Below are positions 7,939-41,034 of a DNA stretch of 42,115 nt, piece by piece. The stretch comes from Candidatus Caldarchaeum sp. (GTDB taxonomy: Archaea > Thermoproteota > Nitrososphaeria_A > Caldarchaeales > Caldarchaeaceae). Numbering within the stretch: position 1 is the first letter of the stretch; every line of letters begins with the position of its first letter. The stretch spans positions 8,696 through 50,810 of the forward strand of contig JAWBKB010000011.1 of NCBI GenBank assembly GCA_038831915.1, given 5' to 3'. Made by a program: the position numbers and the translations under genes. The notes under the pieces are model-generated. The model worked only from the letters and a program-made list of their open reading frames with translations. It was not told the DNA's origin and did no database searches.

Positions 7939-8244
7939 TTACATTTTTTGGGGCAAGCCTCGGCCGTAGCCTATCTTCGCGATTTGTTCTCTTGAAGGCC
8001 ACTCGCCGAAGGCTTGCCAAACGAGTGCGAAGATTATGTATGGTTGAACTCCCATGTCATACATCTCGACTCCGTCACGGGACATGACGAGTTTTCTTTC
8101 CTCCTCTGATAGGCCGAATTCGTTCATGACGTTTTCGGGGTCTTTTTGAAATCTTTCCCTGAGTTCTGGGCTTCTTGAGATGCTGTATCCGAGCTTGTGG
8201 AGCTTTAGGAATTTAAGCGGTGGATATCTGAACACGATGGTCAT
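7939..8244 (-). CDS. ligA: Extradiol ring-cleavage dioxygenase small subunit (LigA-like)
   Basis: PELRERFQKDPENVMNEFGLSEEERKLVMSRDGVEMYDMGVQPYI is a LigA-type signature; ATG 8244 follows a GAGGTGA RBS; adjacent to ligB. Confidence 0.8.
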   Translation of the reverse strand: MTIVFRYPPLKFLKLHKLGYSISRSPELRERFQKDPENVMNEFGLSEEERKLVMSRDGVEMYDMGVQPYIIFALVWQAFGEWPSREQIAKIGYGRGLPQKM

Positions 8245-8248
8245 GGTT

Positions 8249-9070
8249 TCACCTCTCGAACCAGACAACTGAATAACCGTTGTTCCAGGCCTTCCAGTAA
8301 TGAAGAATTTCGGTCGAAGATGCGGAATAGGCGGCTGCTGCGGCCAGCCAAGAACCTAATTCGTGATTTCCGGTTGCGTCAAGCCAGTCATAGTCCAAGT
8401 CAGTCAATTCCAGGAACTTGCCGTGTTTTAGCTTGTCGATGATGTAGAGGTCGGCTTCCTCATCAACGTTCCCATAATATGGTGTGCCCGGATAATGTGA
8501 CAAACCTCCTGTTCCAACGACGAAAACCTTCTCTTTCCTTTTACTCTTTTCTATGATTTCACCGACGGCTTTTCCGAGGCTATAACATCTCTGGAGCTTG
8601 ACCCTTGGATGAACATTTGTGTTGACATGGAATGGAATTACTTTGACGTCTGGTTTCTTGAATTCCTGCAGCAACCAATAAACAGGCACCGTGAACGGAT
8701 GGTCAAAGAAATCCACTTCCTGCATGAACCCGACGTCAAACCCTGCATCCACTAAGCCGTAGAGTATTTCTTCAGCGAGTTCGTGATGATTTTTTAACTT
8801 CATAATCGTCTTGCCCGCAACTGCGTAGTTGCATTCATCGCCGGTGAAAATCATCATCTGTGGGAAGCAGCCGAACCAAAAAGTCTGGACGTGGTCAGCT
8901 CCGAAAACAAGCAACACATCAGGCTCAAGCTTGTTAAGCCGCCTACCAATCTCTTTCATCGCGTTCCTAATTTTTTCCATTTCGCTGACATACTGCTCCG
9001 TTTCCTGCCAAGGCAATTTGTAAACGACTGGTGAATGAGGCCCTGCTGCAGCGCCAACTATTTTACCCAT
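8249..9070 (-). CDS. ligB: Class III extradiol dioxygenase catalytic subunit (LigB family)
   Basis: GPHSP, FGADH, FDHPFTVP, GTGGLSHYPG, GNHE metal and catalytic motifs. Confidence 0.88.
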   Translation of the reverse strand: MGKIVGAAAGPHSPVVYKLPWQETEQYVSEMEKIRNAMKEIGRRLNKLEPDVLLVFGADHVQTFWFGCFPQMMIFTGDECNYAVAGKTIMKLKNHHELAEEILYGLVDAGFDVGFMQEVDFFDHPFTVPVYWLLQEFKKPDVKVIPFHVNTNVHPRVKLQRCYSLGKAVGEIIEKSKRKEKVFVVGTGGLSHYPGTPYYGNVDEEADLYIIDKLKHGKFLELTDLDYDWLDATGNHELGSWLAAAAAYSASSTEILHYWKAWNNGYSVVWFER

Positions 9071-9115
9071 GTCAATCCGCCTCCCGCAAAACGGGAATAA
9101 TAATTTTGCATCAAC

Positions 9116-9904
9116 CTATATCATGGAGACTAAATCGTCGACGTTGTTAACGATTATGTCTGGTTTTACACCGCTTTTCTCGACATCCTCAAGCTTTGAG
9201 ACGCCTGTTAGTGCTAGGGCGGTTTTCATGCCGAGGTTTTTGGCGGGCAGTAGGTCGTTGACCAATTCATCGCTAACCATCAGCGCTTCAGCCGGCTTCA
9301 CTCCCAGCTTTTTCAAACCCATTTCATAGATGATGTTTGACGGTTTCCCGATTATGGTTGCGACTTTGTCGGAAGCGTATTCCAGCGCCCTGACGATGGG
9401 CCCCACCGATATTGTTTCCCCTGCTTTTTCAGGTATTCTCTTAGACGCGTGACATCCTATCAGCTCAGCGCCTTGTCTTAGGAATGCGAGAGCTTTGTTT
9501 AGCTTCTCGTAGGTGAGCTCTCTGTCTAAACCTACCACCACAAAGTCGGGCCTTTCCACATTTTCATTGACGATTGTATGGGAATATTTCGCAAGTTCTT
9601 CTTTCAGCCCCTTCTCACCCAAAACCCAGACCTTGGTTTTTCCATATTTTTCCCGTAGATACATCGCCGTAGCCTGACCGGCGGAAAGAATTTCTTCCAA
9701 CTTCAACGGCAGGCCTAGTTTGGTCAGCTCTTCCAAAATTTCCTCGTTCAGCTTTGTGGCATTCGTCAAAACCAAGATTTTCATTCCTCTCTCCCTTGCT
9801 TGATTGATTAGCCGAACACCGCCGATGAGCGTCGTTCGTCCCTGCTGGTCCCTCGTAGTTAAAGTTCCTTGCACATCGAGCAGTATGGCTTTTACGTCGC
9901 TCAA
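9116..9904 (-). CDS. HAD-IIA family hydrolase with a variant motif I (DVQGT)
   Basis: LDVQGTL, LTNAT, IIGKPS, MVSDELVNDL, LTGVS; TTG start after a GTGA RBS. Confidence 0.88.
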   Translation of the reverse strand: MSDVKAILLDVQGTLTTRDQQGRTTLIGGVRLINQARERGMKILVLTNATKLNEEILEELTKLGLPLKLEEILSAGQATAMYLREKYGKTKVWVLGEKGLKEELAKYSHTIVNENVERPDFVVVGLDRELTYEKLNKALAFLRQGAELIGCHASKRIPEKAGETISVGPIVRALEYASDKVATIIGKPSNIIYEMGLKKLGVKPAEALMVSDELVNDLLPAKNLGMKTALALTGVSKLEDVEKSGVKPDIIVNNVDDLVSMI

Positions 9905-9911
9905 GGTTTCA

Positions 9912-10838
9912 CTACTCTTTCACTACTCTGTTACGGAGCAGGCCTAGTTCAGTGATTTCAGCTTCGACCACGTCTTTGTCTTTGAGATATTCTTTACCCG
10001 CTGCGGCCACGCCTGCTGGAGTTCCAGTCGCGATGATGTCCCCCGGCTCCAAAGTAATTCCATCCGACAGGTACTCGATGAGGTCGCCGATTTTGTGATA
10101 CATGTCCCGTGTGTAACCATCCTGTCTAACGTCGCCGTTCACCCTAAGCGTTAGTCTAAGCGAATAAGGTGAACTCACTTCATCCTTCGTAACCAGATAT
10201 GGGCCGCACGGAGCAGCGCTGTCCAACCCTTTTCCATGTATCCAATTCTGTCCAAACGGGTTTAGTTGCTGCGGCCATCCAGGCGGAAACTGCTTATCCC
10301 TGAAGCTAACGTCGTTAAAGACGGTGTATCCTGCTACGTATTCCTCGGCCTTGTCACGTGGAATGTACTTTCCTCTTTTACCTATAACGACGGCCAGCTC
10401 AATTTCATAGTCGACCTTGACAGAGGTTTTAGGTATCAAAATGCTGTGTTCATGACCGATGAGTGTGTTGGTGAATTTGCTGAAGAAATAGGGCTTTTCG
10501 GGAACTTTTATCGTCATTTCCTGGCTGTGTGCAACATAGTTTGCCGCAACACAGAATATTTTCTTGGGGTCGGGAACCGGAGGTTTGAAGATTACCTCGT
10601 CGACACTGTAGAAATGAGGCTTTACTTTATCAAGCCCTTTAGCCTCTTTAGCCAGTCTTTCAACGAGCGGAAATGAATGTTCGCTGGCCGCTAACAAGCT
10701 CCGCATCGATACTAGCCAACTCGGGACATGGTCATCACCATAAACACTTTGGTAAACCGAGGCCATGTCGACAACCATTCCGTCTACTAAAAGACCCACT
10801 CGGTCGACACCGTTGTATGAAAAAGTCAGCAATCGCAA
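9912..10838 (-). CDS. Fumarylacetoacetate hydrolase family protein (hydrolase/isomerase/decarboxylase)
   Basis: KIFCVAANYVAH, FFSKF, VDYEIELAVVIGK, GYTVFNDVSFRD, GKGLD, LEPGDIIATGTPAGV. Confidence 0.93.
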   Translation of the reverse strand: MRLLTFSYNGVDRVGLLVDGMVVDMASVYQSVYGDDHVPSWLVSMRSLLAASEHSFPLVERLAKEAKGLDKVKPHFYSVDEVIFKPPVPDPKKIFCVAANYVAHSQEMTIKVPEKPYFFSKFTNTLIGHEHSILIPKTSVKVDYEIELAVVIGKRGKYIPRDKAEEYVAGYTVFNDVSFRDKQFPPGWPQQLNPFGQNWIHGKGLDSAAPCGPYLVTKDEVSSPYSLRLTLRVNGDVRQDGYTRDMYHKIGDLIEYLSDGITLEPGDIIATGTPAGVAAAGKEYLKDKDVVEAEITELGLLRNRVVKE

Positions 10839-10874: not shown

Positions 10875-12164
10875 TTATAAATTTTCAGCCAAATTAATTT
10901 TCGCCTTTCTACGTGTTCTAACTTTTGCAACGACTCTGGCGGGCGCGACCTCTGAATTTTTTATGTTGATGGGCATAGCGTAAACCGTTACCTTCTTCCC
11001 CGCGATGCGTGACATGTCTCCCAGATTTTCGATTATCAAGACATCGTTTTGAAGAAGTGTTTTGTGAACTTGTTTTTCTCCGCTGCGTTCCGGGTTCGGC
11101 ATGTCGATGCCAAATATCTTAGTTTCTTTCTCTACCAGCCATTCGGCAAATTCCACGTCGACAACAGGATGTGCATAATATTTCGGCTGACCTAAGTATC
11201 TGTTCCAACCGGTGTAGACAAAGACAATCCAACGAGGGGGAAGGTAATGCCTGTCGAGCAGTTTTTTCGCCCATTCAAGAGTTATGACATCGTCAGACGA
11301 GGAGCATTCCATGTTTAAAACAATGCATTTACCGATGAACAAATCAGGCGGATATTCGTCTATTGTTTTCCCGTTCGGGAAAAGCAGGGACGGTGTGTCA
11401 AAATGCGTGAAAACTTTTGTGGGTTTGTTGTCTGATTCACGGATTTTAGAAAGGTTAACTTGGCTGAAATCTTCGGGAGCCGGTGGAATTGTCAAGTCGT
11501 AGTAGGAATTAGCCCTTAATTTGGAAATTTCTGGCATATCTGATTTTGAAATCTGTTCGATGTACGTCCGGAGTTGCTGAACGGTCCATTCCTGCGTGAC
11601 CAACTGCTTAAAAGTTTGACGTTGCAAAGCTGGGTCCCGTAATTTAAGTAGATACAATAGGTGGAGAAGCCCTACTTTCCTATCGGTAGGAAGATTCCTA
11701 TACTCTTCTATCACGTCATGGGGAAGTTTGAGTAGTTCAACCCGGTTGTACACGTATTTTGGGTTGATTCCCAAAAGTTTGGCCAGTTCGTCGTATGATT
11801 TCCCCGTTCTTTTAACCCAGAAATTGAAATATTCGGCTTCCTCTAGCGGGTCTCTATCCTTTCTCAGCATGTTCTCGATTGCACATTGAATGATGACTTC
11901 GTCGTCACCAAGTTTATCTACGATGCACGTTATTTCCTCTACGCCGGCAAGTTTGGCGGCTTCAAACCGTCTTCTACCCCAGACAAGCTCATAGAAACCA
12001 TCCTGCGAAGGTCTGACTTTTACGGGAACGTCGACATCGCTCCTCTGTTTGATGGATTTCGCCAGTGAAACAAGATCTCCCAAATCTCTACGGTCCGGAA
12101 GCCAGGGGATTGTTTTTATTTTCTTCACGGGGATTCTCTGAATTTTTGGAAAAAAATCAGCCAT
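10875..12164 (-). CDS. ParB-like CTPase/HTH protein fused to a C-terminal cyclase (kynurenine formamidase-like) domain
   Basis: N-terminal: LAKSIK..PVKVRP..YELVWGRRRFEAAKLAG, IENMLRKDRDPLEEA, HTH SYDELAKLLGINPKYVYNRVELLKL. C-terminal: THFDTP..GKTIDEYP..FIG, YTGW, FGIDMPNP, VHKTLL..DVLIIENL, APARVVA. Confidence 0.85.
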   Translation of the reverse strand: MADFFPKIQRIPVKKIKTIPWLPDRRDLGDLVSLAKSIKQRSDVDVPVKVRPSQDGFYELVWGRRRFEAAKLAGVEEITCIVDKLGDDEVIIQCAIENMLRKDRDPLEEAEYFNFWVKRTGKSYDELAKLLGINPKYVYNRVELLKLPHDVIEEYRNLPTDRKVGLLHLLYLLKLRDPALQRQTFKQLVTQEWTVQQLRTYIEQISKSDMPEISKLRANSYYDLTIPPAPEDFSQVNLSKIRESDNKPTKVFTHFDTPSLLFPNGKTIDEYPPDLFIGKCIVLNMECSSSDDVITLEWAKKLLDRHYLPPRWIVFVYTGWNRYLGQPKYYAHPVVDVEFAEWLVEKETKIFGIDMPNPERSGEKQVHKTLLQNDVLIIENLGDMSRIAGKKVTVYAMPINIKNSEVAPARVVAKVRTRRKAKINLAENL

Positions 12165-12316
12165 GGTACCGTTGTCTCATTTGCTTTGTATATACTTTTT
12201 GCAAGTACCGGCCGACACTTGAGACAACGTACATGACCATTAGCGAGAAGCTTTTTCATCATTGTTGTGGTAAGAAAAAAATTTATACAATTTATTGCCG
12301 AATCGGGTGAGAGTTT
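12165..12316. promoter_or_regulatory. Divergent promoter region of the aromatic island
   Basis: Minus-strand BRE/TATA (AAAAAGTATATAC, ~12188-12200) about 25-30 bp before ATG 12164; plus-strand AAGAAAAAAA-TTTATA (12272-12287) about 30 bp before ATG 12317; GGGTGA RBS at 12305-12310. Confidence 0.7.
12170..12229. repeat. Perfect 10-bp inverted repeat (CGTTGTCTCA / TGAGACAACG) with a 40-bp spacer
   Basis: 12170-12179 and 12220-12229 are exact reverse complements, extendable with gaps to flanking GTAC/CATG; the pair brackets the TATA box. Confidence 0.75.
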
Positions 12317-14152
12317 ATGGTTCAGCAAAACAGGTTTCCGTTCGCTTACGAGGTCGAAACGCCCAAAGGAGCCGAAGGATGGGAAAAGATGTATCCCTAT
12401 TACTATGTTTTCGACAAATCTCCTGGGCAGAGACGGGATTGGGAGTCGAGCGTGTTTTGGTTCCAGGACGGGATGCATCATGGTGAGCCGCTGTATCCGT
12501 TGGACGCCATACATCCGATGGCATGGCAGTGGGCCCTATCCTCATACAACTCAAGGACTTTTGTCGTGCCGCCTGCCTTGGGAATAGCTCACAGAGTTCT
12601 GAATGGCTATCTCTACATCACACCAGTGCCGGTCACCGACCCTAACGAAGTAGCAAAACGCGTGGAATATTTCAAGAAAAGAGCCGGCTACTACTATCAG
12701 AATTGGAACAAGATTTTCGAAGAATGGAAGCAGAATGCCGAGGAAATAATCAAAGAAATGGAGGCTCTCGAATTCAAAGATTTGCCGGAAATAGAGGACG
12801 AAGAAGTCGTCTTCAAGCATCTCGGATTGTCGCGAAGCAGCTTCACGCTATACGACAACTTCCATAAACTTGTGATGCTTCATTTCAGGCTTTGGCAGAA
12901 ACATTTCGAAATGCTGAACCTTGGTTACGCGGCGTACCTAACATTCTATCTATTCTGCAAGGAAAAATTCCCCGCAATAGCGGACCAGCACATCGCACGA
13001 ATGGTCGCAGGAATAGAAAGCATACTCTTTAGACCAGACCAGGAATGCCGGAGGCTTGCGAGACTCGCCGTGGACTTCAAACTGGAGTCGATATTTTTGA
13101 AGAGGTTGGGTTACAGCAAGACAGTTGAAGAGCTCGAGAAAAGCAGCAACGGAAGAAAATGGCTCGAAGAGCTCGAGAAATCGAAGTATCCTTGGTTCTA
13201 CTACGCCACGGGTCCCGGATTCTACCACACCGAACCTCGTTGGATTGACAACATGGATATCCCCTTCACCTTCATCACTGATTACATCGAGAAAATCCTG
13301 AAAAACGAGCCAATAGAGCTGCCCACTGAGAAACTTAGGAGAGAAAGAGAAGAACTCGCCGTTCAGTACAAATCGCTGCTCAAAGACCCCGCTGACGTTA
13401 GAACATTTGAGGAGAACCTACAGCTTTCGAGAACCGTTTTTCCCTATGTGGAAGACCACAACTTCTACATAGAGCATTGGGGACACACGATATGGTACAA
13501 GAAGGTCAGAGAAATAGCCAGGATACTGGTGAAGAACGGAATAATAAACCGGGAAGATGATATTTTCTACATCAACTGGCACGAGCTCAGCCAAATACTG
13601 TATGACCTTTGTGCGAACTGGGCAGTCGGCGTCAAACCAGTGGCGACATATGGATGGCCGGCCGAGATAAGCAGAAGACGGCAAATTATCGAAACGGTTA
13701 AGCAGAACAGGCCGCCGCCGGCTTTGGGCAAACCTCCGGAAGTGATAACTGAGCCGTTCACCATCATGCTTTGGGGAGTAACCAAAGAAAGAATTAACCA
13801 GTGGCTTTCAGGTGCTATGGCTGGAGCTGAGAAAAAGCTAGTTGGGCTGCCTGCTTCGCCTGGAGTCGCTGAAGGCCCTGCCAGGATAGTGTTGAACGCA
13901 GAGGACATCGTCAACGTAAAGGAAGGCGAAATTTTGGTTGCACCCATTACGGCACCAGCATGGAACCCCGTCTTTCTCAAGATTAAAGCCACTGTAACCG
14001 ACATCGGCGGAATAATGTCTCATACAGCCATCGTCTGCAGAGAATACGGGCTGCCGGCAGTTGTAGGCACAGGTTTCGCAACCAAGATGATCAAGGATGG
14101 ACAAAAACTGAGAGTCGACGGAACCAACGGAGTAGTGGAAATCATTGACTGA
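12317..14152 (+). CDS. Phenylphosphate synthase alpha-subunit-like protein (substrate-binding region plus phospho-His swivel domain; PpsA/CreH-like)
   Basis: GAEGWEKMYPYYY, FWFQDGMHHGEPLYPLD, LSSYNSRTFVVPP, RAGYYYQNW, HFEMLNLGYAAY, VEDHNFYIEHW match my recollection of Thauera PpsA. The PEP-mobile motif TDIGGIMSHTAIVCREYGLPAVVG places the His at residue 569 (codon 14021). No pyruvate-binding barrel. Confidence 0.85.
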   Translation: MVQQNRFPFAYEVETPKGAEGWEKMYPYYYVFDKSPGQRRDWESSVFWFQDGMHHGEPLYPLDAIHPMAWQWALSSYNSRTFVVPPALGIAHRVLNGYLYITPVPVTDPNEVAKRVEYFKKRAGYYYQNWNKIFEEWKQNAEEIIKEMEALEFKDLPEIEDEEVVFKHLGLSRSSFTLYDNFHKLVMLHFRLWQKHFEMLNLGYAAYLTFYLFCKEKFPAIADQHIARMVAGIESILFRPDQECRRLARLAVDFKLESIFLKRLGYSKTVEELEKSSNGRKWLEELEKSKYPWFYYATGPGFYHTEPRWIDNMDIPFTFITDYIEKILKNEPIELPTEKLRREREELAVQYKSLLKDPADVRTFEENLQLSRTVFPYVEDHNFYIEHWGHTIWYKKVREIARILVKNGIINREDDIFYINWHELSQILYDLCANWAVGVKPVATYGWPAEISRRRQIIETVKQNRPPPALGKPPEVITEPFTIMLWGVTKERINQWLSGAMAGAEKKLVGLPASPGVAEGPARIVLNAEDIVNVKEGEILVAPITAPAWNPVFLKIKATVTDIGGIMSHTAIVCREYGLPAVVGTGFATKMIKDGQKLRVDGTNGVVEIID

Positions 14153-15185
14153 CTTCTCATACATACTACCTGCCGAACGCTGCGACAAAAATGTTTTAAG
14201 ATTGGTCGGAGGAAAAGCCGCTTCGTTAGGCGAAATAGTAAAAGCAGGATGCCCTATACCTTCATTCTTAACAATCACGTCTGAAGCCTACCGGAGATTC
14301 ATCGAATACAACAAAATGCAACCTTTGATTGTGAGCTTGGAGAATGCAAGCACAGATGAAGAAATTGTAATGGTCTCAGCTAAGATAAGAAGACATATTC
14401 AAAACGGCAGTTATCCACAGAACCTCGAGCAAGAGCTCAGGATTGCTTACCGAAGATTTTGCAGTTCATGGGGTCCTCTGGCCGTTAGGTCGAGCGCAAC
14501 TTTGGAAGACGCACCGGGCGCCAGCTTCGCAGGCCAGTATGACTCGTATCTCGGCGTCAGAACAGAGGAAGATTTCCTCCACTACGTTAAAAAATGCTAC
14601 GCAAGCCTATACACCGACAGAGCGGCGTCCTACCGGCACAAGCTCGGCCTGCCGCAGGACAACGTCGCCATGGCCGTGGTTATTCAAAAACTCGTCAAAG
14701 CGAGGTCGGCCGGAGTTATGTTCACGCTTAACCCGCTCAACGGCGACCCCTCGGTCGCGGTAATTGAAAGCAGCTGGGGGCTGGGGGAGGCCGTCGTCAA
14801 GGGAGAAGTGATTCCAGACAAATACGTTGTGAACAAAATCACGAAGGAAATTGTCGAGTCCAAGCATTCACGCAACAAACCTGTGAAGTACGAGATGATG
14901 GATGACGGCTCCGTGAAACGCATCGCAAATTCAACCGATAACTCAAGCCTTAGCATCAACGAAGAAGAAGCTGTTAAGCTTGTCGAATATGGTTTGCGGC
15001 TGGAAAAATACTTTCACAGACCACAGGACATCGAATGGGTCGTGGACAAGGATTCAAACATATTTCTCGTCCAGAGCAGACCTGTTACAGTTCCTACAAC
15101 TGTCGACAGACCATCGAAACAGAGCAACATAGTAGATACGCTCGACCGAGTTGTTGCATCACTTTTAGCCGGTGTGAAAACATAA
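14145..15185 (+). CDS. Phenylphosphate synthase beta-subunit-like protein (stand-alone PEP-synthase ATP-grasp domain; PpsB/CreI-like)
   Basis: VGGKAASLGE, AVRSSATLED..ASFAGQYDSYL, MAVVIQKLV..AGVMFT, SWGLGEAVVKG, PQDIEW, VQSRP; TTG start overlaps the ppsA-like stop. Confidence 0.88.
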   Translation: MTDFSYILPAERCDKNVLRLVGGKAASLGEIVKAGCPIPSFLTITSEAYRRFIEYNKMQPLIVSLENASTDEEIVMVSAKIRRHIQNGSYPQNLEQELRIAYRRFCSSWGPLAVRSSATLEDAPGASFAGQYDSYLGVRTEEDFLHYVKKCYASLYTDRAASYRHKLGLPQDNVAMAVVIQKLVKARSAGVMFTLNPLNGDPSVAVIESSWGLGEAVVKGEVIPDKYVVNKITKEIVESKHSRNKPVKYEMMDDGSVKRIANSTDNSSLSINEEEAVKLVEYGLRLEKYFHRPQDIEWVVDKDSNIFLVQSRPVTVPTTVDRPSKQSNIVDTLDRVVASLLAGVKT

Positions 15186-16455: not shown

Positions 16456-18870
16456 TTATTTTGTGTGAACGATTATTGTTGAACCTTTAGCTGTAGCCGT
16501 TACTTCGTAAACTGTGTCGGCGGCTTCTATGAGTTCTCGGTCGTGTGAAACAACGATCACTTGTGGGATGATTCGTTTTCCTCCTGCGAAGTTTTTGAGA
16601 ACATTTACCAGTTCTCTTCGTCTTTCCGTGTCAAGGTGGATGGTTGGTTCGTCCATGATTATTGATTCGAGTTTTTCGCCTGCGAGAGAGGAGGCGATTG
16701 CCAGCCTGAGCAATATTGCGACGACGATTTTCTCCCCGCCGCTGAGGGTCTCGATTGATTGTTCTCCGTTGGGCCCGTACACAGTTACGTTGAAGTCTTC
16801 GTCGATGCGGATGTCGTCGAACCTCAGTTCAAAATGTTGGAGAAAGACGCGGGCGACTTGTTCCACCGTAACGCTGGCTTGTTTACGAATAATTTTCTGC
16901 AGCAGCCCGTCTTTATGGAATACTTCACGTATCCGCTCAAGGGAGTTGACGTATGTGCTTAGTTTGTCGTATTCCTGCCGCAGCTTCTCCAGTGTTTCCA
17001 TCTCTTTTTCCAAGTTTTTCACAGATTCTTCGATGGCGTTCACAGCAGCCAACAAAGCACCATACAGCCCTTCCAGTCTCTTCTCCTCGTCACGCAGTTT
17101 TTCATACAGCGCCTCGGCCTTGTCAAGTAAGCCCTGGTCGAAAAAGAGTTCTTTCTTACGGTTCTCCAGCAGTTGTTTCTCCTCAGTCATCTTCTGGATT
17201 TCGGTTGATAGTGATTCCGCTTGCTGAGACAAGTTTCTGACATAGGTTTTTGCCAGTGTGATGTCGCGTAGCCCATGTTTCTCCACCAAAGCCACCGCTC
17301 TGATGAATGTATCATGGTTTGGCTTCAGTGTTTCTAGGACGCGGTTATTTTCGCGGATTTTGTCCTGAATCGCGGTTCTTCTCTGCTCGAGCACTTGAAG
17401 CTCTCCGACCTGCGAAGACAGTTTCGCTATTTGAGCAGCTAATTCGTCTCTCCTTCTTTGGTAATTTTTGACATCGTCTGGTCTGATTTTCTCCAGCTCG
17501 TTCAAAGTGTTCATAAGTAGCTCAAGCCGTGCTTTCGTGGCTTGGATTTCCTGTTCAACTTTTTTCCTGCGCCGGTTAATCAATATCTGGGTGTAAACGG
17601 GCAGTATGTTGATTAGCAGTGGAACGGGGCTCTGCAGGAAGAAAGCCAAGATAATTGATGCGATGGGTATGCTGGTTAGCAGTGCAGCTGATAACGCCGT
17701 ATAGCGAGTGGTTTGGTGTGAAAGTTTCTCAACTGTCTGCTGCTGCCTCGTTATATCTGTTTGCAGCCGGCTTACGAGGGCCGACCACCTATCGGTTATG
17801 ATGTCCTCCGAGACGCTGACGTTAGTCCTACGCTGAAAATCTGAGAGAAACGCTTTGACCTGTTTGTCAACATACTCGGCCTCGACTTTCTTTCTTTCCA
17901 ATTCATCTGAAAGCGGTTTTTTCTTTTCTATCTGCTCCTCGACTGATTTTAACTCGTCATACAGCTTCTTGACCTCCGACTCGATGGAACGGTATTCCCG
18001 ATAGTCCGCTTGGCACGTATCGATGTCTTGAATCGCTTTTGTCAGCTCCGTGATTTTTTCGCTGACCAACTTGAGCTCGCTCTTCCGGCTCTGCAAATCT
18101 GCGGAAATTGTGATAATATTCCTGGTAAGTTCTTCGTCTATGCGTTTCTTTTCGCGGAGCATCTCCAGCTCACGTCTCTTCCCGGTAAGCTGTTCGGATA
18201 TTTCTCGCCTTTTCGATTCGATCTCGCTGAGCTCGTGTTTTTTTGTTTCGAGTTCTTGTTTTTTCTGCTGTAGCTGTGTTTTGATTTCGTCGGCTTTTCT
18301 GAGCTTGAATTCATAGTTGGTCAGCTCGTTCCGTAGCGTCGATAATGGGTCTTTCAAAGCTTCCCAGAGTTTTTCCAGCTCGTCTATTCCGAGAAGATGG
18401 CCGATGATTTTCTTTCTTTCGGCTGGCCGTTCTTCGATTAGCTGGGCCAGCTGACCCTGTCTTACGTAAATGGCGTTCATGAAAACCTTGCTGTCGACGC
18501 CGATTAGCTTAGCTATTTCTGGAATGATTGTTTTCTCTCCTGAGCCTGGCTTGACGAGCGGGTATCCGCTGCTTATGTCTCGTAGGTTGCCTATACTTGG
18601 CTTTCCCGGTGAAAGACTCCATTCCACTTCATAGTTTTTGCCTCGGACGGAGAAAACCACGGCAACTTTCGATTGTGGCTGGCCTCTCCGTATTAGGTTC
18701 GCGTCAACACCTCTTCCATGTTCGCGGAAAAGCGAATAGGTAACCGCGTCGAGTATCGATGTTTTCCCCGCACCATTCTGCCCAACGATGACCGTCACGC
18801 CGAGCGGAAAATCCACTGAAGCATCCTGGTAAGAGACGAAATTTCTCATGCTGACTTTTTGGATTATCAT
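16456..18870 (-). CDS. rad50: DNA double-strand break repair ATPase Rad50 (SMC family), without a zinc hook
   Basis: Walker A GQNGAGKTS, Q-loop YVRQGQ, long coiled coils, signature LSGGE, Walker B IIMDEPT, SHD; coupled to mre11. Confidence 0.92.
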   Translation of the reverse strand: MIIQKVSMRNFVSYQDASVDFPLGVTVIVGQNGAGKTSILDAVTYSLFREHGRGVDANLIRRGQPQSKVAVVFSVRGKNYEVEWSLSPGKPSIGNLRDISSGYPLVKPGSGEKTIIPEIAKLIGVDSKVFMNAIYVRQGQLAQLIEERPAERKKIIGHLLGIDELEKLWEALKDPLSTLRNELTNYEFKLRKADEIKTQLQQKKQELETKKHELSEIESKRREISEQLTGKRRELEMLREKKRIDEELTRNIITISADLQSRKSELKLVSEKITELTKAIQDIDTCQADYREYRSIESEVKKLYDELKSVEEQIEKKKPLSDELERKKVEAEYVDKQVKAFLSDFQRRTNVSVSEDIITDRWSALVSRLQTDITRQQQTVEKLSHQTTRYTALSAALLTSIPIASIILAFFLQSPVPLLINILPVYTQILINRRRKKVEQEIQATKARLELLMNTLNELEKIRPDDVKNYQRRRDELAAQIAKLSSQVGELQVLEQRRTAIQDKIRENNRVLETLKPNHDTFIRAVALVEKHGLRDITLAKTYVRNLSQQAESLSTEIQKMTEEKQLLENRKKELFFDQGLLDKAEALYEKLRDEEKRLEGLYGALLAAVNAIEESVKNLEKEMETLEKLRQEYDKLSTYVNSLERIREVFHKDGLLQKIIRKQASVTVEQVARVFLQHFELRFDDIRIDEDFNVTVYGPNGEQSIETLSGGEKIVVAILLRLAIASSLAGEKLESIIMDEPTIHLDTERRRELVNVLKNFAGGKRIIPQVIVVSHDRELIEAADTVYEVTATAKGSTIIVHTK

Positions 18871-20000
18871 TTCCTAGCTCTTTTCAGGATGTATTCTTTT
18901 AGTGCTTGTTCGCCTTCGTTGTGGAAGATTTTATAAATGGTGACGGTAAGTTCGGTCTCCTCTTTCGAAAGCTGTGCTTGGGATATTGATTGTTTGATGA
19001 TTGCTTCGATGTCGAATGCGGGTTGTCCACGGCCCAGCAGCTGCTCGAAAGATACAACAGTTTCGGCGACCGCTCTTCTGTACCTTATTTCGAGACATCC
19101 ATGGCTTCGCAGCAAGTCGATTACTTCCCGTAGCTTCTTCGCGTCAACATCGCTGTCCTTCACATTTAGATGAACTATTGGTTTCTTGCTCTGAGAGGAA
19201 ACCCATTCAAGTATTTCGGTCAGCGGCTGCGAAAGGTGAACTTCGTAGACGGCTTGAGGCCTTACATGTTTAAGGTCGATGGGGGTCGGCTCCAGCTCAG
19301 GGCTTGTAAGGTCAACAAGGTAAAACCCTTTACCATCTTTCGTCCAGACGGGAATTTCGTCGCGGCTCAGTATTTCAATCGAGCCAGGGTAGGCGGCGAC
19401 GCCGCCTGATTTTTTCATGACTTTTCTGATGTGTTCATGTCCCAAGGCGTAGTAGTCAAAGCCAGACGGAAGACTATCAACTGACAGGTCATCCGCCGAC
19501 CCACGCAGCGGCACGTGTGTTATCAAGATTTTCCGGCCTTCAAGCCCCGATGCTTTGCGGCTCATTTCTTCAAGCGTTTGGCGTGCTCTTTCCACTGCGA
19601 CCAGAGGCGGTTTGTCAAGCCCTGCCAAAACAGTTTTAACACCGTCTTGATCAAATTCAACTACTTGCCCGTTGACATGGGTTAGCAGCCAGTCTTTGAA
19701 GAAGGCTACTGGGTTCCATTCTCCGATGCGTCTTGGGATGTCGTGGTCGCCGAGAACACAGAAAATCCTCACCCCATGCGTCGAAAGCTTTTCAAAACAT
19801 TTCTTCGCGACGTAAAGAGCTCTTATCGGCGGTCTCGGCGAATGAAACAAATCTCCCGATATCACGACTGTTTTGGCATGTTCTTCGAGTATTTTCTCCA
19901 CCGTTTCTTCGAATGATTCGTAGATGTCCTGTTCCCGTTCAGCCAACCCGTACTGGCGGTAGCCGAGATGAATGTCAGCCAAATGTGCTACAAGGGTCAA
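18867..20000 (-). CDS. mre11: Mre11 nuclease
   Basis: HLADIHLG, SGDLFH, LGDHD, ITH, YYALGHEH, AYPGS; lies between herA and rad50. Confidence 0.92.
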   Translation of the reverse strand: MTLVAHLADIHLGYRQYGLAEREQDIYESFEETVEKILEEHAKTVVISGDLFHSPRPPIRALYVAKKCFEKLSTHGVRIFCVLGDHDIPRRIGEWNPVAFFKDWLLTHVNGQVVEFDQDGVKTVLAGLDKPPLVAVERARQTLEEMSRKASGLEGRKILITHVPLRGSADDLSVDSLPSGFDYYALGHEHIRKVMKKSGGVAAYPGSIEILSRDEIPVWTKDGKGFYLVDLTSPELEPTPIDLKHVRPQAVYEVHLSQPLTEILEWVSSQSKKPIVHLNVKDSDVDAKKLREVIDLLRSHGCLEIRYRRAVAETVVSFEQLLGRGQPAFDIEAIIKQSISQAQLSKEETELTVTIYKIFHNEGEQALKEYILKRARK

Positions 20001-21619
20001 GGCGGTTCACTTCTTTCTCTGAAAACAAGCCATTCGGTTTCGTGTTTCTCGCTTTCGGCGACTTCTTTCAGCGATTCGTCGAGTAGCTGTTCGACATCGA
20101 TGTCCGCTCCCCCTTCCCGGCTTTTCCGTTTCCGGACTTTGATGATGGCGGGTATGTTGACGACTTCGCCGACCACTACAGCTTCTCCCCTCGCTAAACT
20201 CGGCAAATCCTCGAGAAGCTCATGTCCAAGCCTTTCAGACGCTTCGACAACAGCTCTCTGGTCGACGGGGTTGGTTATACGCATGATTATCTGGCTGCTG
20301 CACTGGCTGAGAACGTCGGGATGGACTTTAGAAGGCCTCTGAGTGACAAGTGTCAAAAATATTCCGAATTTACGTCCCTCCGCCGCGATTTTCTTTATGA
20401 ATCCTCCTGAATAAGTGTCGCATAACGCCGGCGGCGGAATAAACCGATGAGCTTCCTCGATGAAGACGAAGACAGGATACTTGTATCCTTGCTCGGTCGG
20501 CAGCATTTTCAACGTGAAAATCTCTTTCAAAACAAAGTACGCGATGAGGTCTGATTCTCTGTCACTCAGCCCAGACAAATCGATGACCGAAAGCGTTTTC
20601 GGCTTCAGAAAATCCCTGACGTCAAAGCTTCTATCACCGAGAATAGTCAAATCTTGAAGACGTTCCATGTAGTTTAACGCTTTAGCCGCTGAATCTTTAA
20701 GCTGCCTCGAAGCGTCAGAGGTGTCAGATGAAAGGTTTCGCAGCTCTTCGATTAATTCTGTAAAAGAGAATTCTCCTTTGCCCTTTAATTCTTTGAAAAC
20801 TTTTACGACCGCTCTTCTAATGTTGACATAGGATTTCTCCACTCCCGTGATGTAAAAAAGTTCTTCGAGCTTGAGGTCGCGGATGCTGATGGAGAAAGGC
20901 CGGATATTTCTGATGTCTGGATAGCGAGCCTTGCTTCCAGCGGGCCTAAACACATAAACTCGCTTAGAAAGCTCATACGGCCAATCATCGGAAGGCACCG
21001 AAAAACGAACGTAGTCGGCGTGCGGGTCGAGAACTATAATGGTCGCTCCTTTTTCCAAAAGCTCCTCCATCAAAACTCCGGCCAAGTAACTTTTGCCCGC
21101 CCCCGTCTGCGCAATTATGGCGAGATGTCTTCTGAAACCAGACACCGATAGACCGATGTTCACGCCGGGCCTCGTCGTCAAACTTCCAACCCAAAGCCTC
21201 TTACCCTTCCCCGAGTAAATTTCACTTAGCAGACGGTCTGGAGCGAGGTAAACTTTCGTACCCGGCGGAATAGAGTAACGGACGCGTGTGTAGCTCGCCT
21301 GCTGAACCGTTTTCAAGTCGTCGACGTAGACGATGACCTGAGCGTTTCTCCAGTGTTTGCATTCTTCGACGAGTCTCTGGGTCAGACGTGTGAGAACCTC
21401 GTAGTCAACGTCTTTTCTGAGAAGCGAGCTGTATGAAGCCACTCCACGCACCTGAGCGACGACAAGCCCGCCTTCAAACGGTGCCACAATGTATTCCCAA
21501 CGCGGAACCCTGGAAGAAACACGTGGATGCACGCTGAACACAAACGATGTTGGACTGCTTTCGCCGACAACTATGCCGACTTCCTCCAAATTCCCCATCA
21601 TGTCATAGGGAGACGACAA
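19997..21619 (-). CDS. herA: HerA bipolar DNA helicase/translocase
   Basis: N-terminal HAS-barrel-like region, RHLAIIAQTGAGKS, LDPHADY, FIEEAHRF, EGRKFG, TQRPS. Confidence 0.93.
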   Translation of the reverse strand: MSSPYDMMGNLEEVGIVVGESSPTSFVFSVHPRVSSRVPRWEYIVAPFEGGLVVAQVRGVASYSSLLRKDVDYEVLTRLTQRLVEECKHWRNAQVIVYVDDLKTVQQASYTRVRYSIPPGTKVYLAPDRLLSEIYSGKGKRLWVGSLTTRPGVNIGLSVSGFRRHLAIIAQTGAGKSYLAGVLMEELLEKGATIIVLDPHADYVRFSVPSDDWPYELSKRVYVFRPAGSKARYPDIRNIRPFSISIRDLKLEELFYITGVEKSYVNIRRAVVKVFKELKGKGEFSFTELIEELRNLSSDTSDASRQLKDSAAKALNYMERLQDLTILGDRSFDVRDFLKPKTLSVIDLSGLSDRESDLIAYFVLKEIFTLKMLPTEQGYKYPVFVFIEEAHRFIPPPALCDTYSGGFIKKIAAEGRKFGIFLTLVTQRPSKVHPDVLSQCSSQIIMRITNPVDQRAVVEASERLGHELLEDLPSLARGEAVVVGEVVNIPAIIKVRKRKSREGGADIDVEQLLDESLKEVAESEKHETEWLVFRERSEPP

Positions 21620-21658
21620 GTTTCTGCCCTGCTCTGCTACGGCCTTGACTAAAAAGTT

Positions 21659-22972
21659 TCAGCCCGGCGGCTCGGGTATCTGTCTTCTCGAAAGCTCGAC
21701 AGGCCCAAGTGCTTTGTCAACGAATTCCATCAGAATCGGTGCATCAGTCTTTCGGAGGCGGGCTCTCCGGTCAGCTTCATATAGCCAAACGTTGTAGACT
21801 TCCTTGCTTCCATACATTTCCCGCAGAGCTGAAAGTAATTTAACGAACTTTTCTCCCGTGTTGAAGAGTTGCGGGACATAGATTTCGAAGAACTTTTCGT
21901 CGGAATCCAGCGTGAAAGCTGGCAGGTCGATTTTGAGGGGATAGTCGCGGCTGTCGAACCTCACATAAGAGGAAACCACTGCAGTAACGGCTTGAAGCCT
22001 GTTCAAAACTTCGTATACTTTCGGGGCCTTATCCACCGAGAGCCGAAGCTTATTTTCCGCGAACATTTCGGGATTCCGTGTTGCGAACAGGAAAAAATCT
22101 CGCAGCCGCGAGGAAGCGCCCAAAAGCAAAGGAGCGGTATAACCTTCGTCCACGAAGCAGTTTTTCAGCAACAGCAGGTCGGGTGTCCTAAAAATCGTTT
22201 CACTGATGATCTTGAACAAATTTTCCAGCTTTCCTGCGTATTTTGTTTTGAGTTTCTCTACTGTCCTGAGAGCCTGCCGCGGGTTTCTGAAAGCAGAATA
22301 GAGAATGTTTTCGATGGTCTCCAGGTCTCTAGGCTCGATGTATCCCAATTCCTTCAACCGCCGGACTTCCTCCGCATGTTGACGCGATATTATGAAATCT
22401 CGGAGCGAAGATGATGAACTGATTTTCGCCATCGAAACAACTTTCACCTGAAAACGTTTCGCTTCGTCAAGAAAATCAGCGAGTTCTTCATAGAAGCGGA
22501 GTAATAATTCACCGTAGTCGGGGGGAGAGTTTGTTGGCGTAATCGGCGGTGTTGATAACAGGCCGTAGAGAGAGCCGTCGAGCAGCAAAAACCCGTCGCC
22601 CGAAAGTTGTTTTAGGGTTTTTCTCGCGACTTTTAGTTCGAGAGATTTCATCAGCAAGCTGGCGTATTTGAAACTGGGTGGGTAGGCGACGACGCATGTG
22701 AAATCTCTTTCCTCTATTCCACAGCCATAAGCATATGCGGAAACAAAGATTATCGAGCCTCCGTTGGCGAGACGAAACTTCATCAACCCTCCATCCACCG
22801 CAGCCACTCGGTCAAATTTTTCGCCACCACCAAAATCCGAAGAAATCCACAAGTTTCGAGAATAATTAACCAGCTCGGTCAGGAAAGGGTTATCGCCGTC
22901 GTTAACGAGCCTTGCTAATTTTTCCCCATGTTTCCGCAGCCACGAATCAAGAAGGTCTGCGACAAAAGCCAT
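21659..22972 (-). CDS. nurA: NurA 5'-3' nuclease
   Basis: AAVDGG and LLDGSL acidic motifs, SMAKIS, C-terminal YEADRRAR; first gene of the nurA-herA-mre11-rad50 operon. Confidence 0.88.
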   Translation of the reverse strand: MAFVADLLDSWLRKHGEKLARLVNDGDNPFLTELVNYSRNLWISSDFGGGEKFDRVAAVDGGLMKFRLANGGSIIFVSAYAYGCGIEERDFTCVVAYPPSFKYASLLMKSLELKVARKTLKQLSGDGFLLLDGSLYGLLSTPPITPTNSPPDYGELLLRFYEELADFLDEAKRFQVKVVSMAKISSSSSLRDFIISRQHAEEVRRLKELGYIEPRDLETIENILYSAFRNPRQALRTVEKLKTKYAGKLENLFKIISETIFRTPDLLLLKNCFVDEGYTAPLLLGASSRLRDFFLFATRNPEMFAENKLRLSVDKAPKVYEVLNRLQAVTAVVSSYVRFDSRDYPLKIDLPAFTLDSDEKFFEIYVPQLFNTGEKFVKLLSALREMYGSKEVYNVWLYEADRRARLRKTDAPILMEFVDKALGPVELSRRQIPEPPG

Positions 22973-25158: not shown

Positions 25159-26436
25159 TTACATGTGTTCTACGGGGGACATTTTGTTTTGCAGGGGGTC
25201 GAAAGCTTCCGCTCTCTCCGGAATTTTCCGAGCGACTATTTTACCCCTCTTAATGACGAATAGAGGTTTTTTCTGCTGAGCTAATGCTTGAAGTTCATCA
25301 AATGCGTCAAGCACTACAAGGTCTGCGCTGGCGCCTTGTTTAACGCCGTATGTTTCGGCTATTCGCAGTGCCTTGGCGGCATTGTATGTGATCAGGCTGA
25401 ATGATTGCCGGAGTTCGGTCATGCTCATCAGCTGTCCTACGTGAACAGCCATGAAAAGCACTTGAACCATGTCTCCTCTGCCGAGTGGATACCATGGGTC
25501 CATGACACAGTCGTGTCCAAGCGCGACGTTAACACCGTTAGCTAACAATTCCTTGACACGGGTCATTCCTCTTCTTTTTGGATATGTGTCAAATCTTCCT
25601 TGAAGATGGATGTTGATTAACGGGTTTGCGATGACTGTGACGCCGGCTTTCTTTAGTATGCGGTAGAGTTTGGCGGCGTAAGCGTCGTTGTATGAATGCA
25701 TGGCTGTGCAGTGTCCGGCAGTCACTCTTCCCATATAGTTTTTACGGATGGTGTAGGACGCGACGACTTCGAGAAAACGAGATTGTTCGTCGTCTGTTTC
25801 ATCTACATGTCCGTCTATATCTCGGTCATATTTTTTGGCGAGTTTGAAGGCTTCTTCGATTGATTTGACTCCGTCTTCGCGGGTGTATTCGATGTGCGGA
25901 ATCATTCCGACATTGTCGACGCCCATTTCAACCGATTTTTCAAGCAACTCGAGGTTTTCGGGGTCTGTAAGGATGCCGTCTTGCGGAAACGCGGTTATCT
26001 GAATGTCGACTATGTCTTTGTAGATTTTTTTGACTTCGAGCAGGCCTTTGACGGTTGTGAGGGTTGGGTCTGTTACATCGGCGTGTGTCCGAACCATTAA
26101 GGTTCCGTGGGAGACCATCATCCTCAAAGCTTTTCCTGCTCTTTCAACGATGTCGGAAACCGTGAGCTTCTTTTTCCTTTCACCCCAGATTTCAATTCCT
26201 TCCAGTAAAGTGCCAGATTCGTTAAAACGCGGATCACCCATGGTCAATACCGAATCGAGATGAAAATGCATGTCGATGAAACCCGGCATCACAAGCCTTC
26301 CATCCGCGTCAATTTCTTCAACGTTGGCTTTAATGTTGGGGCCGATTTGGCTTATCACGCCGTTCTGAATTAGAATGTCGACGAGTTCGGCTCTGCCCGA
26401 TATTTTAGCCCGCTTAATCAGTAAAGAGCCGTCCAT
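25159..26436 (-). CDS. codA: Cytosine deaminase (bacterial-type amidohydrolase)
   Basis: HFHLD, NESGTLLEGI..W, RTHAD, AFPQDG, IPHIEYTREDG, HVDETDD, HLQGRFDTYPKRRG, GHDCVMDPWYPLG. Confidence 0.92.
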   Translation of the reverse strand: MDGSLLIKRAKISGRAELVDILIQNGVISQIGPNIKANVEEIDADGRLVMPGFIDMHFHLDSVLTMGDPRFNESGTLLEGIEIWGERKKKLTVSDIVERAGKALRMMVSHGTLMVRTHADVTDPTLTTVKGLLEVKKIYKDIVDIQITAFPQDGILTDPENLELLEKSVEMGVDNVGMIPHIEYTREDGVKSIEEAFKLAKKYDRDIDGHVDETDDEQSRFLEVVASYTIRKNYMGRVTAGHCTAMHSYNDAYAAKLYRILKKAGVTVIANPLINIHLQGRFDTYPKRRGMTRVKELLANGVNVALGHDCVMDPWYPLGRGDMVQVLFMAVHVGQLMSMTELRQSFSLITYNAAKALRIAETYGVKQGASADLVVLDAFDELQALAQQKKPLFVIKRGKIVARKIPERAEAFDPLQNKMSPVEHM

Positions 26437-26461
26437 GTAAAATATATGGTGGTGTTGAATA

Positions 26462-28627: not shown

Positions 28628-28631
28628 TTCA

Positions 28632-30152: not shown

Positions 30153-30169
30153 CGCAAACCACTAAATCC

Positions 30170-30179
30170 AATAAAAAAG
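30170..30179 (-). terminator. Possible intra-operon oligo-T terminator after the substrate-binding gene
   Basis: Minus strand CTTTTTTATT about 14 nt after the BMP stop and before the ATPase start. Confidence 0.4.
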
Positions 30180-30192
30180 TGGGGTTGGTTGT

Positions 30193-31389: not shown

Positions 31390-31408
31390 ATTGCTAAGAT
31401 GCTGTTTG

Positions 31409-31422
31409 TATATTTAAATATA
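31409..31422. promoter_or_regulatory. Palindromic TATA element between divergent genes
   Basis: TATATTTAAATATA is a perfect 14-bp palindrome about 20-33 bp upstream of GTG 31389, consistent with a leaderless transcript. Confidence 0.55.
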
Positions 31423-31490
31423 GTGGACGTGTTCAACCATGTCTTCCGTTGGTGGTTTCTTCGATGTCTGATGCTTGAAAAAGCTAAACC

Positions 31491-32738: not shown

Positions 32739-32827
32739 AACCATTTTCATTATGATGGGGACGCAAATCGGCACAGCACCATTTTTAATAATATACTTAT
32801 ACCAGCTGGCGATAGTATCATAAGAAT

Positions 32828-36343: not shown

Positions 36344-36357
36344 AAAATTCTGAGTGT

Positions 36358-37737: not shown

Positions 37738-37795
37738 GATGATATAATTGTTGACGGATACTTAAATTTTACCAAAGACGTGGTAAAGACAAATT

Positions 37796-40108: not shown

Positions 40109-40170
40109 GTAAATCGTATTCGGAAGAAATTCTAATATATGTTTCGAATCTGAAATGAAAGTTGGAGTGT

Positions 40171-40911: not shown

Positions 40912-41034
40912 AGTTATAAAATTTGAGCCAGCAATAAATAGATTTTTTCAAACGTCCTTACGAATTCCAAAAATTATTGTCTCTAAATTATCAACAAAAG
41001 ATTGAAATTACTTAGAGCCGCATGTTGATGGGAT

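Follow-up and report, generated by a model that had tools for sequence, protein, structure and literature searches.

Candidatus Caldarchaeum sp. encodes a 429-aa protein in which a ParB-type module is fused to a cyclase-fold (KynB-like) domain, and which is probably a one-component regulator of the adjacent operon: a pseudo-enzyme domain would dimerize the protein and probably sense a metabolite. The gene lies in a stretch of 42,115 nt (the window; assembly GCA_038831915.1, contig JAWBKB010000011.1, positions 8,696-50,810 of the forward strand), to which all plain coordinates below refer. Architecture, conservation, residue pattern, and synteny are observed directly for the family of such fusions, and the dimer in a model. 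The gene and its parts, all on the minus strand, are as follows (HTH, helix-turn-helix; NTP, nucleoside triphosphate; ORF, open reading frame; pLDDT, predicted local distance difference test).

10875-12164 (-), whole gene, 429 aa, ATG start: ParB_N, HTH_ParB, cyclase-fold domain, and basic tail (ORF list, Pfam, AlphaFold2).
11868-12146 (-), ParB N-terminal (NTP-binding) domain, residues 7-99 (Pfam PF02195, TIGR00180, Spo0J alignment).
11964-11981 (-), Box II, WGRRRF, residues 62-67 (translation, family alignment).
From residue 97 (-), Box III, ENMLR (translation, family alignment).
11547-11858 (-), ParB-type HTH DNA-binding domain, residues 103-206 (Pfam PF17762, Foldseek).
11505-11546 (-), flexible linker, residues 207-220 (pLDDT <50 for residues 209-218).
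10920-11504 (-), cyclase-fold (KynB-like) domain, residues 221-415 (Pfam PF04199, PDB sequence matches, Foldseek, motif table, homodimer model).
11385-11417 (-), altered motif KVFTHFDTPSL, residues 250-260 (translation).
10878-10919 (-), basic C-terminal tail, KVRTRRKAK..., residues 416-429 (Lys/Arg count, low pLDDT for residues 419-429).

The reading frame is open from its ATG, and Pfam confirms the three domains recognized in the original prediction: ParB_N (residues 7-99; E 3.2e-13; 50 bits vs. a cut-off of 26.3), HTH_ParB (residues 103-206; E 1.3e-11; 45 bits vs. 22.6), and Cyclase PF04199 (residues 249-359; E 5.8e-21; 75.6 bits vs. 23.1). The motifs that it quoted are all located in the translation (WGRRRF at residues 62-67, IENMLRKDRDPLEEA at residues 96-110, and KVFTHFDTPSL at residues 250-260). 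The protein passes TIGR00180, the NCBIfam ParB domain model (91.5 bits vs. a cut-off of 58.45), and scores below the cut-offs of the Noc equivalog (105 vs. 315 bits) and the arylformamidase equivalog TIGR03035 (40 vs. 223.05 bits); it fails the NCBIfam RepB equivalog by a wide margin. By these family models, the fusion family falls outside the partition ParB, Noc, and arylformamidase equivalogs. The ParB C-terminal dimerization domain (PF23552) has no Pfam match in the protein, and the cyclase-fold domain occupies its position. An AlphaFold2 model, for which a 23-sequence family alignment was the input, has a mean pLDDT of 87 and consists of two folded halves with a low-confidence linker (residues 209-218) between them.

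The ParB half aligns with Spo0J (6sdk) at 3e-19 in a PDB sequence search, and Foldseek matches the N-terminal half to ParB and Noc (1e-13) and to KorB (8qa9; TMt 0.72). The phosphate and Mg contacts, namely residues G63, R65, and R66 of Box II (GxRR) and E97, N98, and R101 of Box III (ENxxR), do not vary among the 23 aligned sequences. In alignments with Spo0J of B. subtilis and T. thermophilus, L22 falls in the column of the Box I Gln, and R64 in that of the Glu of GERR; the Gln position is Leu in 21 of 23 fusions, and the Glu is present in none of 24, the residue there being R, K, Y, W, N, S, or H. Residues Q52 and E93 of MxParB were matched to these Spo0J columns by motif spacing (Q-x-R; G-E-R-R), not by a direct MxParB alignment. 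In MxParB, Q52 and E93 are the catalytic pair: the Ala variants Q52A and E93A nearly lose cytidine triphosphate (CTP) hydrolysis, and they show approximately wild-type nucleotide affinity, ring closure, retained DNA loading, and slower release, while R95 of GERR is required for nucleotide binding (bioRxiv 10.1101/2021.05.05.442810, in part). Because the phosphate and Mg contacts are kept and both hydrolysis residues are lost, the fusion family is predicted to bind an NTP, probably CTP, with slow or no hydrolysis. A precedent is PadC of Myxococcus xanthus, which binds CTP without hydrolyzing it and, like the fusion, lacks equivalents of both Q52 and E93 (bioRxiv 10.1101/2021.05.05.442810, in part); PadC differs in recruiting ParA to bactofilin, in not being a transcription factor, and in having no cyclase domain. 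The nucleotide specificity of the ParB-CTPase fold is described as not predictable from sequence in the parts of a 2025 survey used here (PMC12704722).

The closest functional parallels are KorB (RK2), VirB (Shigella), and BisD, which are ParB-family CTP-dependent clamps that regulate transcription (PMC12704722, in part). The fusion would work most like these proteins, in which a ParB_N domain and a ParB-type HTH are likewise used for gene regulation, and it matches KorB both by sequence (8qa8; 1e-9) and by fold (8qa9; TMt 0.72). However, KorB, VirB, and BisD are bacterial, plasmid- or ICE-borne (integrative and conjugative element), have C-terminal dimerization domains of their own, and are described as using CTP binding and hydrolysis, whereas the fusion family is archaeal and chromosomal, ends in a cyclase-fold pseudo-enzyme, and has neither the Gln nor the Glu needed for hydrolysis. 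The best matches by sequence and fold are canonical ParB/Spo0J and Noc (6sdk at 3e-19; 7nfu), which share with the fusion the conserved GxRR, ENxxR, and HTH elements; the fusion departs from them in having no ParA partner or ParA-binding motif, no PF23552 domain, Leu in place of the Box I Gln, and a variable residue in place of the GERR Glu. Only six residues precede the ParB_N domain at the N-terminus, and a ParA-binding motif is found in 0 of 23 fusion proteins.

For the cyclase half, PDB sequence matches are to 2b0a, 1r61, and 4co9, and Foldseek recovers 3krv (1e-11; TMt 0.76), as well as KynB, isatin hydrolase, and MJ0783. In KynB, Asp56, His161, and Glu173 hold one Zn and His50, His54, and Asp56 the other, and His60 hydrogen-bonds the bridging hydroxide; each of the six residues shows at least 99.7% conservation across 336 KynB sequences (PMC4243253, in part). 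The changes to the HxGTHxDxPxH motif are as first claimed (first His to Lys and last His to Leu), with an additional change of Gly to Phe (alignment to 1r61, motif table). "Degenerate," as the domain had been called, fits these His losses but not the metal site, which is largely kept: H254, D256, H367, and E379, equivalent to KynB His54, Asp56, His161, and Glu173, are invariant in the 23-row alignment, so that four of the five KynB metal ligands are retained. The catalytic His60 equivalent is absent from 24 of 24 fusions, where it is replaced by Leu, Gln, Ala, or Tyr, and is present together with the full H...H motif in nine of nine stand-alone cyclases (three from the same genome as the fusion, two neighbors of clade-B3 fusions, and the four nearest representatives). 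The His50 equivalent is absent from all 12 clade-A proteins and from P0076, and present in all 11 clade-B proteins. The fusion shares with KynB the PF04199 fold, the Asp56/His161/Glu173 site, and His54, and the interface elements in its dimer model correspond to those of KynB; it differs from KynB in the loss of His60 in all fusions, the loss of His50 and Gly in clade A, and the fusion to a DNA-binding module. As read from these alignments, the loss of the catalytic His is universal among the fusions and specific to the fused form, and one metal site appears to be under selection. Loss of the catalytic His in all fusions with retention of the metal site is the signature of a pseudo-enzyme, one that would still bind metal and, plausibly, a substrate-like ligand.

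Bifunctional enzyme-regulators such as PutA and BirA are known, and the C-terminal domain of the fusion could instead be an active pathway metal hydrolase, making the protein an enzyme-regulator or a DNA-tethered enzyme. The invariance of the full KynB metal site (D256, H367, E379) and of H254 is in keeping with such activity, as is the retention of the first His in clade-B proteins; moreover, isatin hydrolase, which has the KynB fold, works with a single Mn (PMC4243253, in part). We nevertheless consider it quite unlikely, given that the His60 equivalent is missing from all 24 fusions and present in all nine stand-alone relatives, that the arylformamidase equivalog is scored at 40 bits vs. 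a cut-off of 223, that the fusion accompanies five chemically unrelated clusters, and that its own genome already holds three intact stand-alone cyclases besides the fusion. Three clade-B3 fusions also have, directly upstream, a stand-alone cyclase gene whose HxGTHxDxPxH motif is intact (L040:430-1110, L048:711-1457, and L049:756-1502). A recent duplication of a neighboring pathway cyclase is rejected as the origin of the sensor because these B3-neighbor cyclases stand at the bottom of the similarity ranking (113-116 of 116 stand-alone cyclases) for each of eight fused domains.

The cyclase-fold domain is likely a dimerization module that replaces the ParB C-terminal domain, a role absent from the original prediction. 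When residues 215-420 are modeled as a homodimer, that is, for the C-terminal domain alone, the ipSAE is 0.70 in each of three runs vs. 0.00 for the best of three controls; the runs share at least 86% of their contacts, with pLDDT never below 84. Of the proteins used to calibrate the score, 20 of 30 whose structures were solved as pairs reached this mark, as did 1 of 23 solved as single chains. The modeled interface comprises residues 219-234, 269-277, and 395-414 (strand one, a short stretch of helix, and the final two strands), and the KynB dimer uses the same named elements (PMC4243253, in part). Because KynB dimers have already been solved, the score may reflect the model's memory of them, and it shows likeness rather than binding. 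A basic tail with 6-10 Lys/Arg follows the domain in 12 of 12 clade-A proteins. The C-terminal domain of B. subtilis ParB carries a lysine patch that contacts DNA non-specifically; by analogy, our guess is that the clade-A tail might make a similar non-specific contact.

Dimerization could also be all that the domain does: it would then be purely the C-gate of a regulator, without metabolite sensing, and the signal would be the nucleotide state of the ParB domain. The modeled KynB-like homodimer (0.70 vs. 0.00 for the control) agrees with this, as does the placement of the domain exactly at the ParB C-terminal dimerization position, with no PF23552 match, and the existence of ParB-half relatives (P0075 and P0078) with other, non-enzyme C-termini. 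However, bare dimerization leaves unexplained why four metal-site residues are invariant down to 36% identity, and clades that go with different pathways show consistent differences in their active-site loops (KVFTHFDTPSL, SHIGTHVDTPRQ, THVGTHIDSPHQ, and THAITHIDTPKL), the fused cyclase domains of different clades being only 28-45% identical; we regard a purely structural role as improbable. The two relatives themselves (P0075, 345 aa, 252 bits; P0078, 280 aa, 211 bits) have the same WGxRR and I or L at the Gln position, and their C-termini are non-cyclase, namely a Pro-rich linker with a Cys-containing module of ~90 aa, or a helical tail. The ParB module seems to have been combined with several C-terminal modules. 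Two further ParB_N matches occur in the genome of the fusion: a 107-aa protein that consists of the ParB_N domain only, with the motif DGSRRLEAAKQAG (L001:1489-1812, C3), and a weaker ParB_N-like match in a 244-aa frame (L003, C6).

The fusion is a conserved, lineage-specific family, and the explanation of it as an artifact, under which homologs would exist only as separate genes, therefore fails. In a search of 5.8 billion proteins, 33 of 70 clusters matched carry all three domains, at 35-60% identity; among the best 150 matches of a hidden Markov model search of 1.84 billion cluster representatives, nine span both halves (four of these nine re-checked by Pfam) and the rest are single-domain cyclases or ParBs. 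Contig collections contain 12 genome loci and 34 metagenome loci, of which 30 are near full length. All named records are from Caldarchaeales-type archaea (Caldarchaeum, Calditenuaceae, Pelearchaeum, archaeon HR01, and Nitrososphaerota). Within the order, the fusion is present in 12 of 76 genomes (by family, 10/17, 1/19, 0/4, and 0/35), and within the genus of the window, in six of 12 other genomes, being absent from two that are 99% complete. The host genome (1.59 Mb, 95.6% complete) has one copy, and archaeon HR01 (L008 and L014) and genome G013 have two each. In one same-genus genome, the gene is broken by a single TAG (G002:C48:138-1463), either a pseudogene or a sequencing error. P0036 (236 aa, ParB half only), considered as a true split, follows P0018 as far as YNRVELL, where the two sequences part, and looks instead like a frameshift or assembly break; P0001 and P0033, whose contigs measure 1.3-2 kb, are probably truncated.

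Such a patchy distribution might suit a component of mobile-element partition or anti-phage defense, and an association with mobile elements is frequent among orphan ParB-fold proteins (PMC12704722, in part). PADLOC returned 0 matches, no integrase, phage, or plasmid families occur among the scanned neighbors, and base composition is even across the window, all of which makes a role of this kind extremely unlikely.

In the window, the fusion gene is the first of 11 co-directional ORFs with short gaps, followed by FAA-hydrolase, HAD-IIA, LigB, LigA, an unknown, Rieske, a second HAD, and further unknowns, and it is divergent from a pair of genes for PEP-utilizers and PPDK_N proteins (PEP, phosphoenolpyruvate). 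This agrees with its description in the original prediction as the head of a catabolic operon. The assigned neighbors are as follows.

9912-10838 (-), FAA-hydrolase family (Pfam, NCBIfam).
9116-9904 (-), HAD-IIA (Pfam, NCBIfam).
8249-9070 (-), LigB (Pfam, NCBIfam).
7939-8268 (-), LigA, 109 aa (Pfam, NCBIfam).
12317-14152 (+), PEP-utilizers protein, 611 aa (Pfam; NCBIfam NF006153, 892 bits).
14145-15185 (+), PPDK_N protein, 346 aa (Pfam).

The downstream genes at 7939-10838 (-) are the presumed regulated operon, and the LigAB cluster includes two HAD-IIA phosphatases. On its family matches, the divergent 611-aa and 346-aa pair is a split PEP-synthase-like kinase that is conserved beside clade-A fusions; the NCBIfam name for the match is PRK08296, "hypothetical protein." The size and split of the pair (12317-15185) resemble those of the two large subunits (alpha/beta) of phenylphosphate synthase. 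The absence of an adjacent parA, as originally noted, holds among the scanned window ORFs: Pfam finds no ParA-type family in 33 of the 38 ORFs of at least 150 aa or in the 109-aa LigA ORF, with the five unscanned ORFs overlapping longer ORFs in another frame and six of the scanned ORFs having no family at 1e-5. Nor is there a ParA-type family in 193 neighbor ORFs of the relatives (110 from 12 genome loci at E<=1e-5, and 83 from 26 metagenome loci, with some distal ORFs trimmed, at E<=1e-10).

The 43 fusions that were sorted by neighborhood fall into five types; 41 have visible neighbors and 38 were scanned, with the near-duplicates L024, L030, and L046 classed by ORF sizes, and L020 (no neighbors) and L007 without context. 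In type A, FAA_hydrolase is immediately downstream in eight of 10 scanned loci with downstream sequence, and LigB, HAD, Rieske, and the PEP-utilizers/PPDK_N pair also occur. Type B1 is associated with a luciferase-like oxidoreductase, coenzyme A-transferase, and 2-oxoacid dehydrogenase E1/E2, with a divergent branched-chain-type ATP-binding cassette (ABC) binding protein; type B2 with a 177-180-aa unknown, a luciferase-like protein, and UbiD, with a divergent ABC system; type B3 with M24 creatinase/prolidase, M20, and amidohydrolases; and type B4 with 3-hydroxyacyl-CoA dehydrogenase (3HCDH) and a luciferase-like protein. Fusions are usually at the 5' end of a catabolic cluster or divergent from a transporter. 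The 177-180-aa protein is conserved and matches no Pfam family; its gene always comes after the fusion gene in clade B2, in the same orientation, at the following loci.

L010:1340-1873
L011:11310-11843
L012:1471-2013
L038:4248-4790
L039:2593-3135
L041:1665-2201

In a quick maximum-likelihood (ML) tree of the 43 fusions, four of the five types each occupy one side of a branch, and L020 and L007 each fall inside one clade; clade supports (SH-aLRT) are 100, 100, 100, 98, and 100. Neighborhood labels change six times on the tree vs. a minimum of five, and none of 200 shuffles is as low. Five paralogous clades, each with its own catabolic cluster, look like the pattern of local, substrate-specific regulators and not that of a segregation or nucleoid protein. 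The specific proposal of an aromatic-ligand sensor is not supported as worded: its basis was the neighbors of clade A, and the other clades adjoin non-aromatic clusters.

The same pattern bears on whether the fusion is a chromosome- or nucleoid-organizing ParB/Noc-like protein whose catabolic neighbors are incidental. Spo0J and Noc are its best sequence and fold matches, TIGR00180 is passed, and Box II and Box III are canonical, all as might be expected of such a protein; however, its restriction within the order to 12 of 76 genomes, its absence from two 99%-complete same-genus genomes, the paralogs in some genomes, the conserved synteny of each clade to a different catabolic cluster, and the lack of both a ParA neighbor among scanned ORFs and a ParA-binding motif (0/23) make this very unlikely. 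Archaeal ParB+HTH proteins rarely occur with ParA and are considered unlikely to act in segregation, and chromosomal ParABS systems are generally absent from archaea (PMC12704722, in part).

The region between the fusion gene and the divergent pair contains candidate regulatory elements.

12165-12316 (no strand), divergent intergenic region, candidate operator, 152 bp (sequence).
12170-12179 (+) and 12220-12229 (-), exact 10-nt inverted repeat CGTTGTCTCA, flanking the TATA-like box (repeat search).
12188-12195, TATA-like GTATATAC, ~27 nt before the ATG.
12202-12221, imperfect 20-bp palindrome (repeat finder).

The position of the TATA-like box ~27 nt before the ATG suggests that the fusion gene may have a leaderless transcript. 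Both exact copies of the 10-nt repeat in the window are in 12165-12316, and copies with one mismatch elsewhere in the window are at chance level (six vs. 3.2 expected). By rough estimate, the chance expectation is ~0.01 for an exact 10-nt inverted repeat within 60 nt, and ~0.06 for the palindrome; the two are candidates only as operator elements.

For the one-component regulator proposed here, we infer the DNA target, nucleotide, ligand, and sign of regulation. The ParB-type domain would bind an NTP, probably CTP, with slow or no turnover, and the HTH would bind DNA close to the promoter that the fusion gene has in common with the divergent PEP-synthase-like pair. The cyclase/KynB-fold domain would form the dimer in place of the ParB C-terminal domain; with one metal site (D256, H367, E379) and H254 kept and the catalytic His lost, it would bind a pathway metabolite without cleaving it. 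Ligand occupancy may then alter DNA binding or the state of the clamp, and hence expression of the adjacent meta-cleavage-type cluster. The regulator interpretation that was originally offered therefore gains comparative evidence, but not in its wording as "CTP-dependent," "aromatic-ligand," and "degenerate."

Several points weigh against this regulator. In four of the 24 fusions (P0027, P0030, P0031, and P0032), the residue immediately ahead of the His60 position is a His that might substitute for the lost one, and the kept metal ligands are equally compatible with residual catalysis. The 10-nt inverted repeat is not found upstream of the relatives L004, L005, and L028-L030, and an alignment of clade-B1 upstream regions shows TATA-like boxes only, with no conserved operator; the 20-bp palindrome is likewise not conserved in relatives. 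Synteny among orthologs is expected from descent alone; because kin share synteny, there are five independent associations, not 43, and the clades that define them come from a quick ML search. The scan of 83 neighbor ORFs used a strict E-value (1e-10), and some ORFs were left out of it. In one metatranscriptome library, contigs with 100% identity lie inside the fusion gene (11874-12081) and the genes for FAA-hydrolase and LigB, and cover a large part of the divergent pair; this is weak evidence for transcription of the fusion gene and both divergent units, as contigs of an RNA library cannot prove transcription (DNA may be present) or give strand or level, and uncovered parts carry no meaning.

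A more specific form of the regulator, which we regard as unlikely, is a ligand-gated ParB clamp, in which a metabolite at the metal centers of the pseudo-enzyme dimer (the "C-gate") would open or close the clamp in place of CTP hydrolysis, and the five clades would be tuned to five catabolic substrates. With the hydrolysis residues lost, such a clamp could not reopen by CTP hydrolysis. If this were true, the fusion would be a first in two respects: as a transcription factor that is a DNA-sliding clamp under small-molecule control, and as a ParB-type transcription regulator described from archaea.

Literature searches on ParB with cyclases, pseudoenzymes, archaea, Caldarchaeum, and Aigarchaeota retrieved no published description of a ParB-cyclase fusion, in agreement with the initial claim that no example had been described. 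The terms "Cyclase," "PF04199," "kynurenine," and "formamidase" have 0 occurrences in the main text of the 2025 PNAS survey, figures aside, of which Fig. 4C may include the architecture (PMC12704722). The fusions in that survey involve CBS, ASCH, MT-A70, HNH, and methyltransferases, those reported for archaeal ParB-CTPase domains being CBS, ASCH, and MT-A70 (PMC12704722, in part); they follow the same principle of a modular ParB fold joined to lineage-specific domains.

Two other gene sets in the window stand apart from the fusion gene. A complete archaeal DNA-end-resection operon at 16456-22972 (-) encodes a Rad50-like SMC ATPase (804 aa), an Mre11-like phosphoesterase (377 aa), HerA (540 aa), and NurA (437 aa). 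The second set, at 25159-41883, looks like a region for purine/pyrimidine or ureide catabolism, with genes for three amidohydrolases, an AllH-like protein, a molybdopterin subunit like that of xanthine dehydrogenase, and two ABC transporter sets of the Bmp/PnrA (nucleoside-like) type.

ParB-family proteins are the founding CTP switches, and to our knowledge, the known regulatory members (KorB, VirB, and BisD) come from bacteria, with nucleotide and DNA as their only signals. The fusion family points to a kind of metabolic gene switch not described before: it would add a ParB-type regulator in archaea, and would couple the ParB switch to metabolism through a built-in, enzyme-derived, metal-containing sensor domain. 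Having lost both hydrolysis residues throughout, the family would also serve as a natural evolutionary experiment on the purpose of CTP hydrolysis. For the uncultured Caldarchaeales of hot springs, the family would provide a handle on the regulation of several uncharacterized catabolic clusters.

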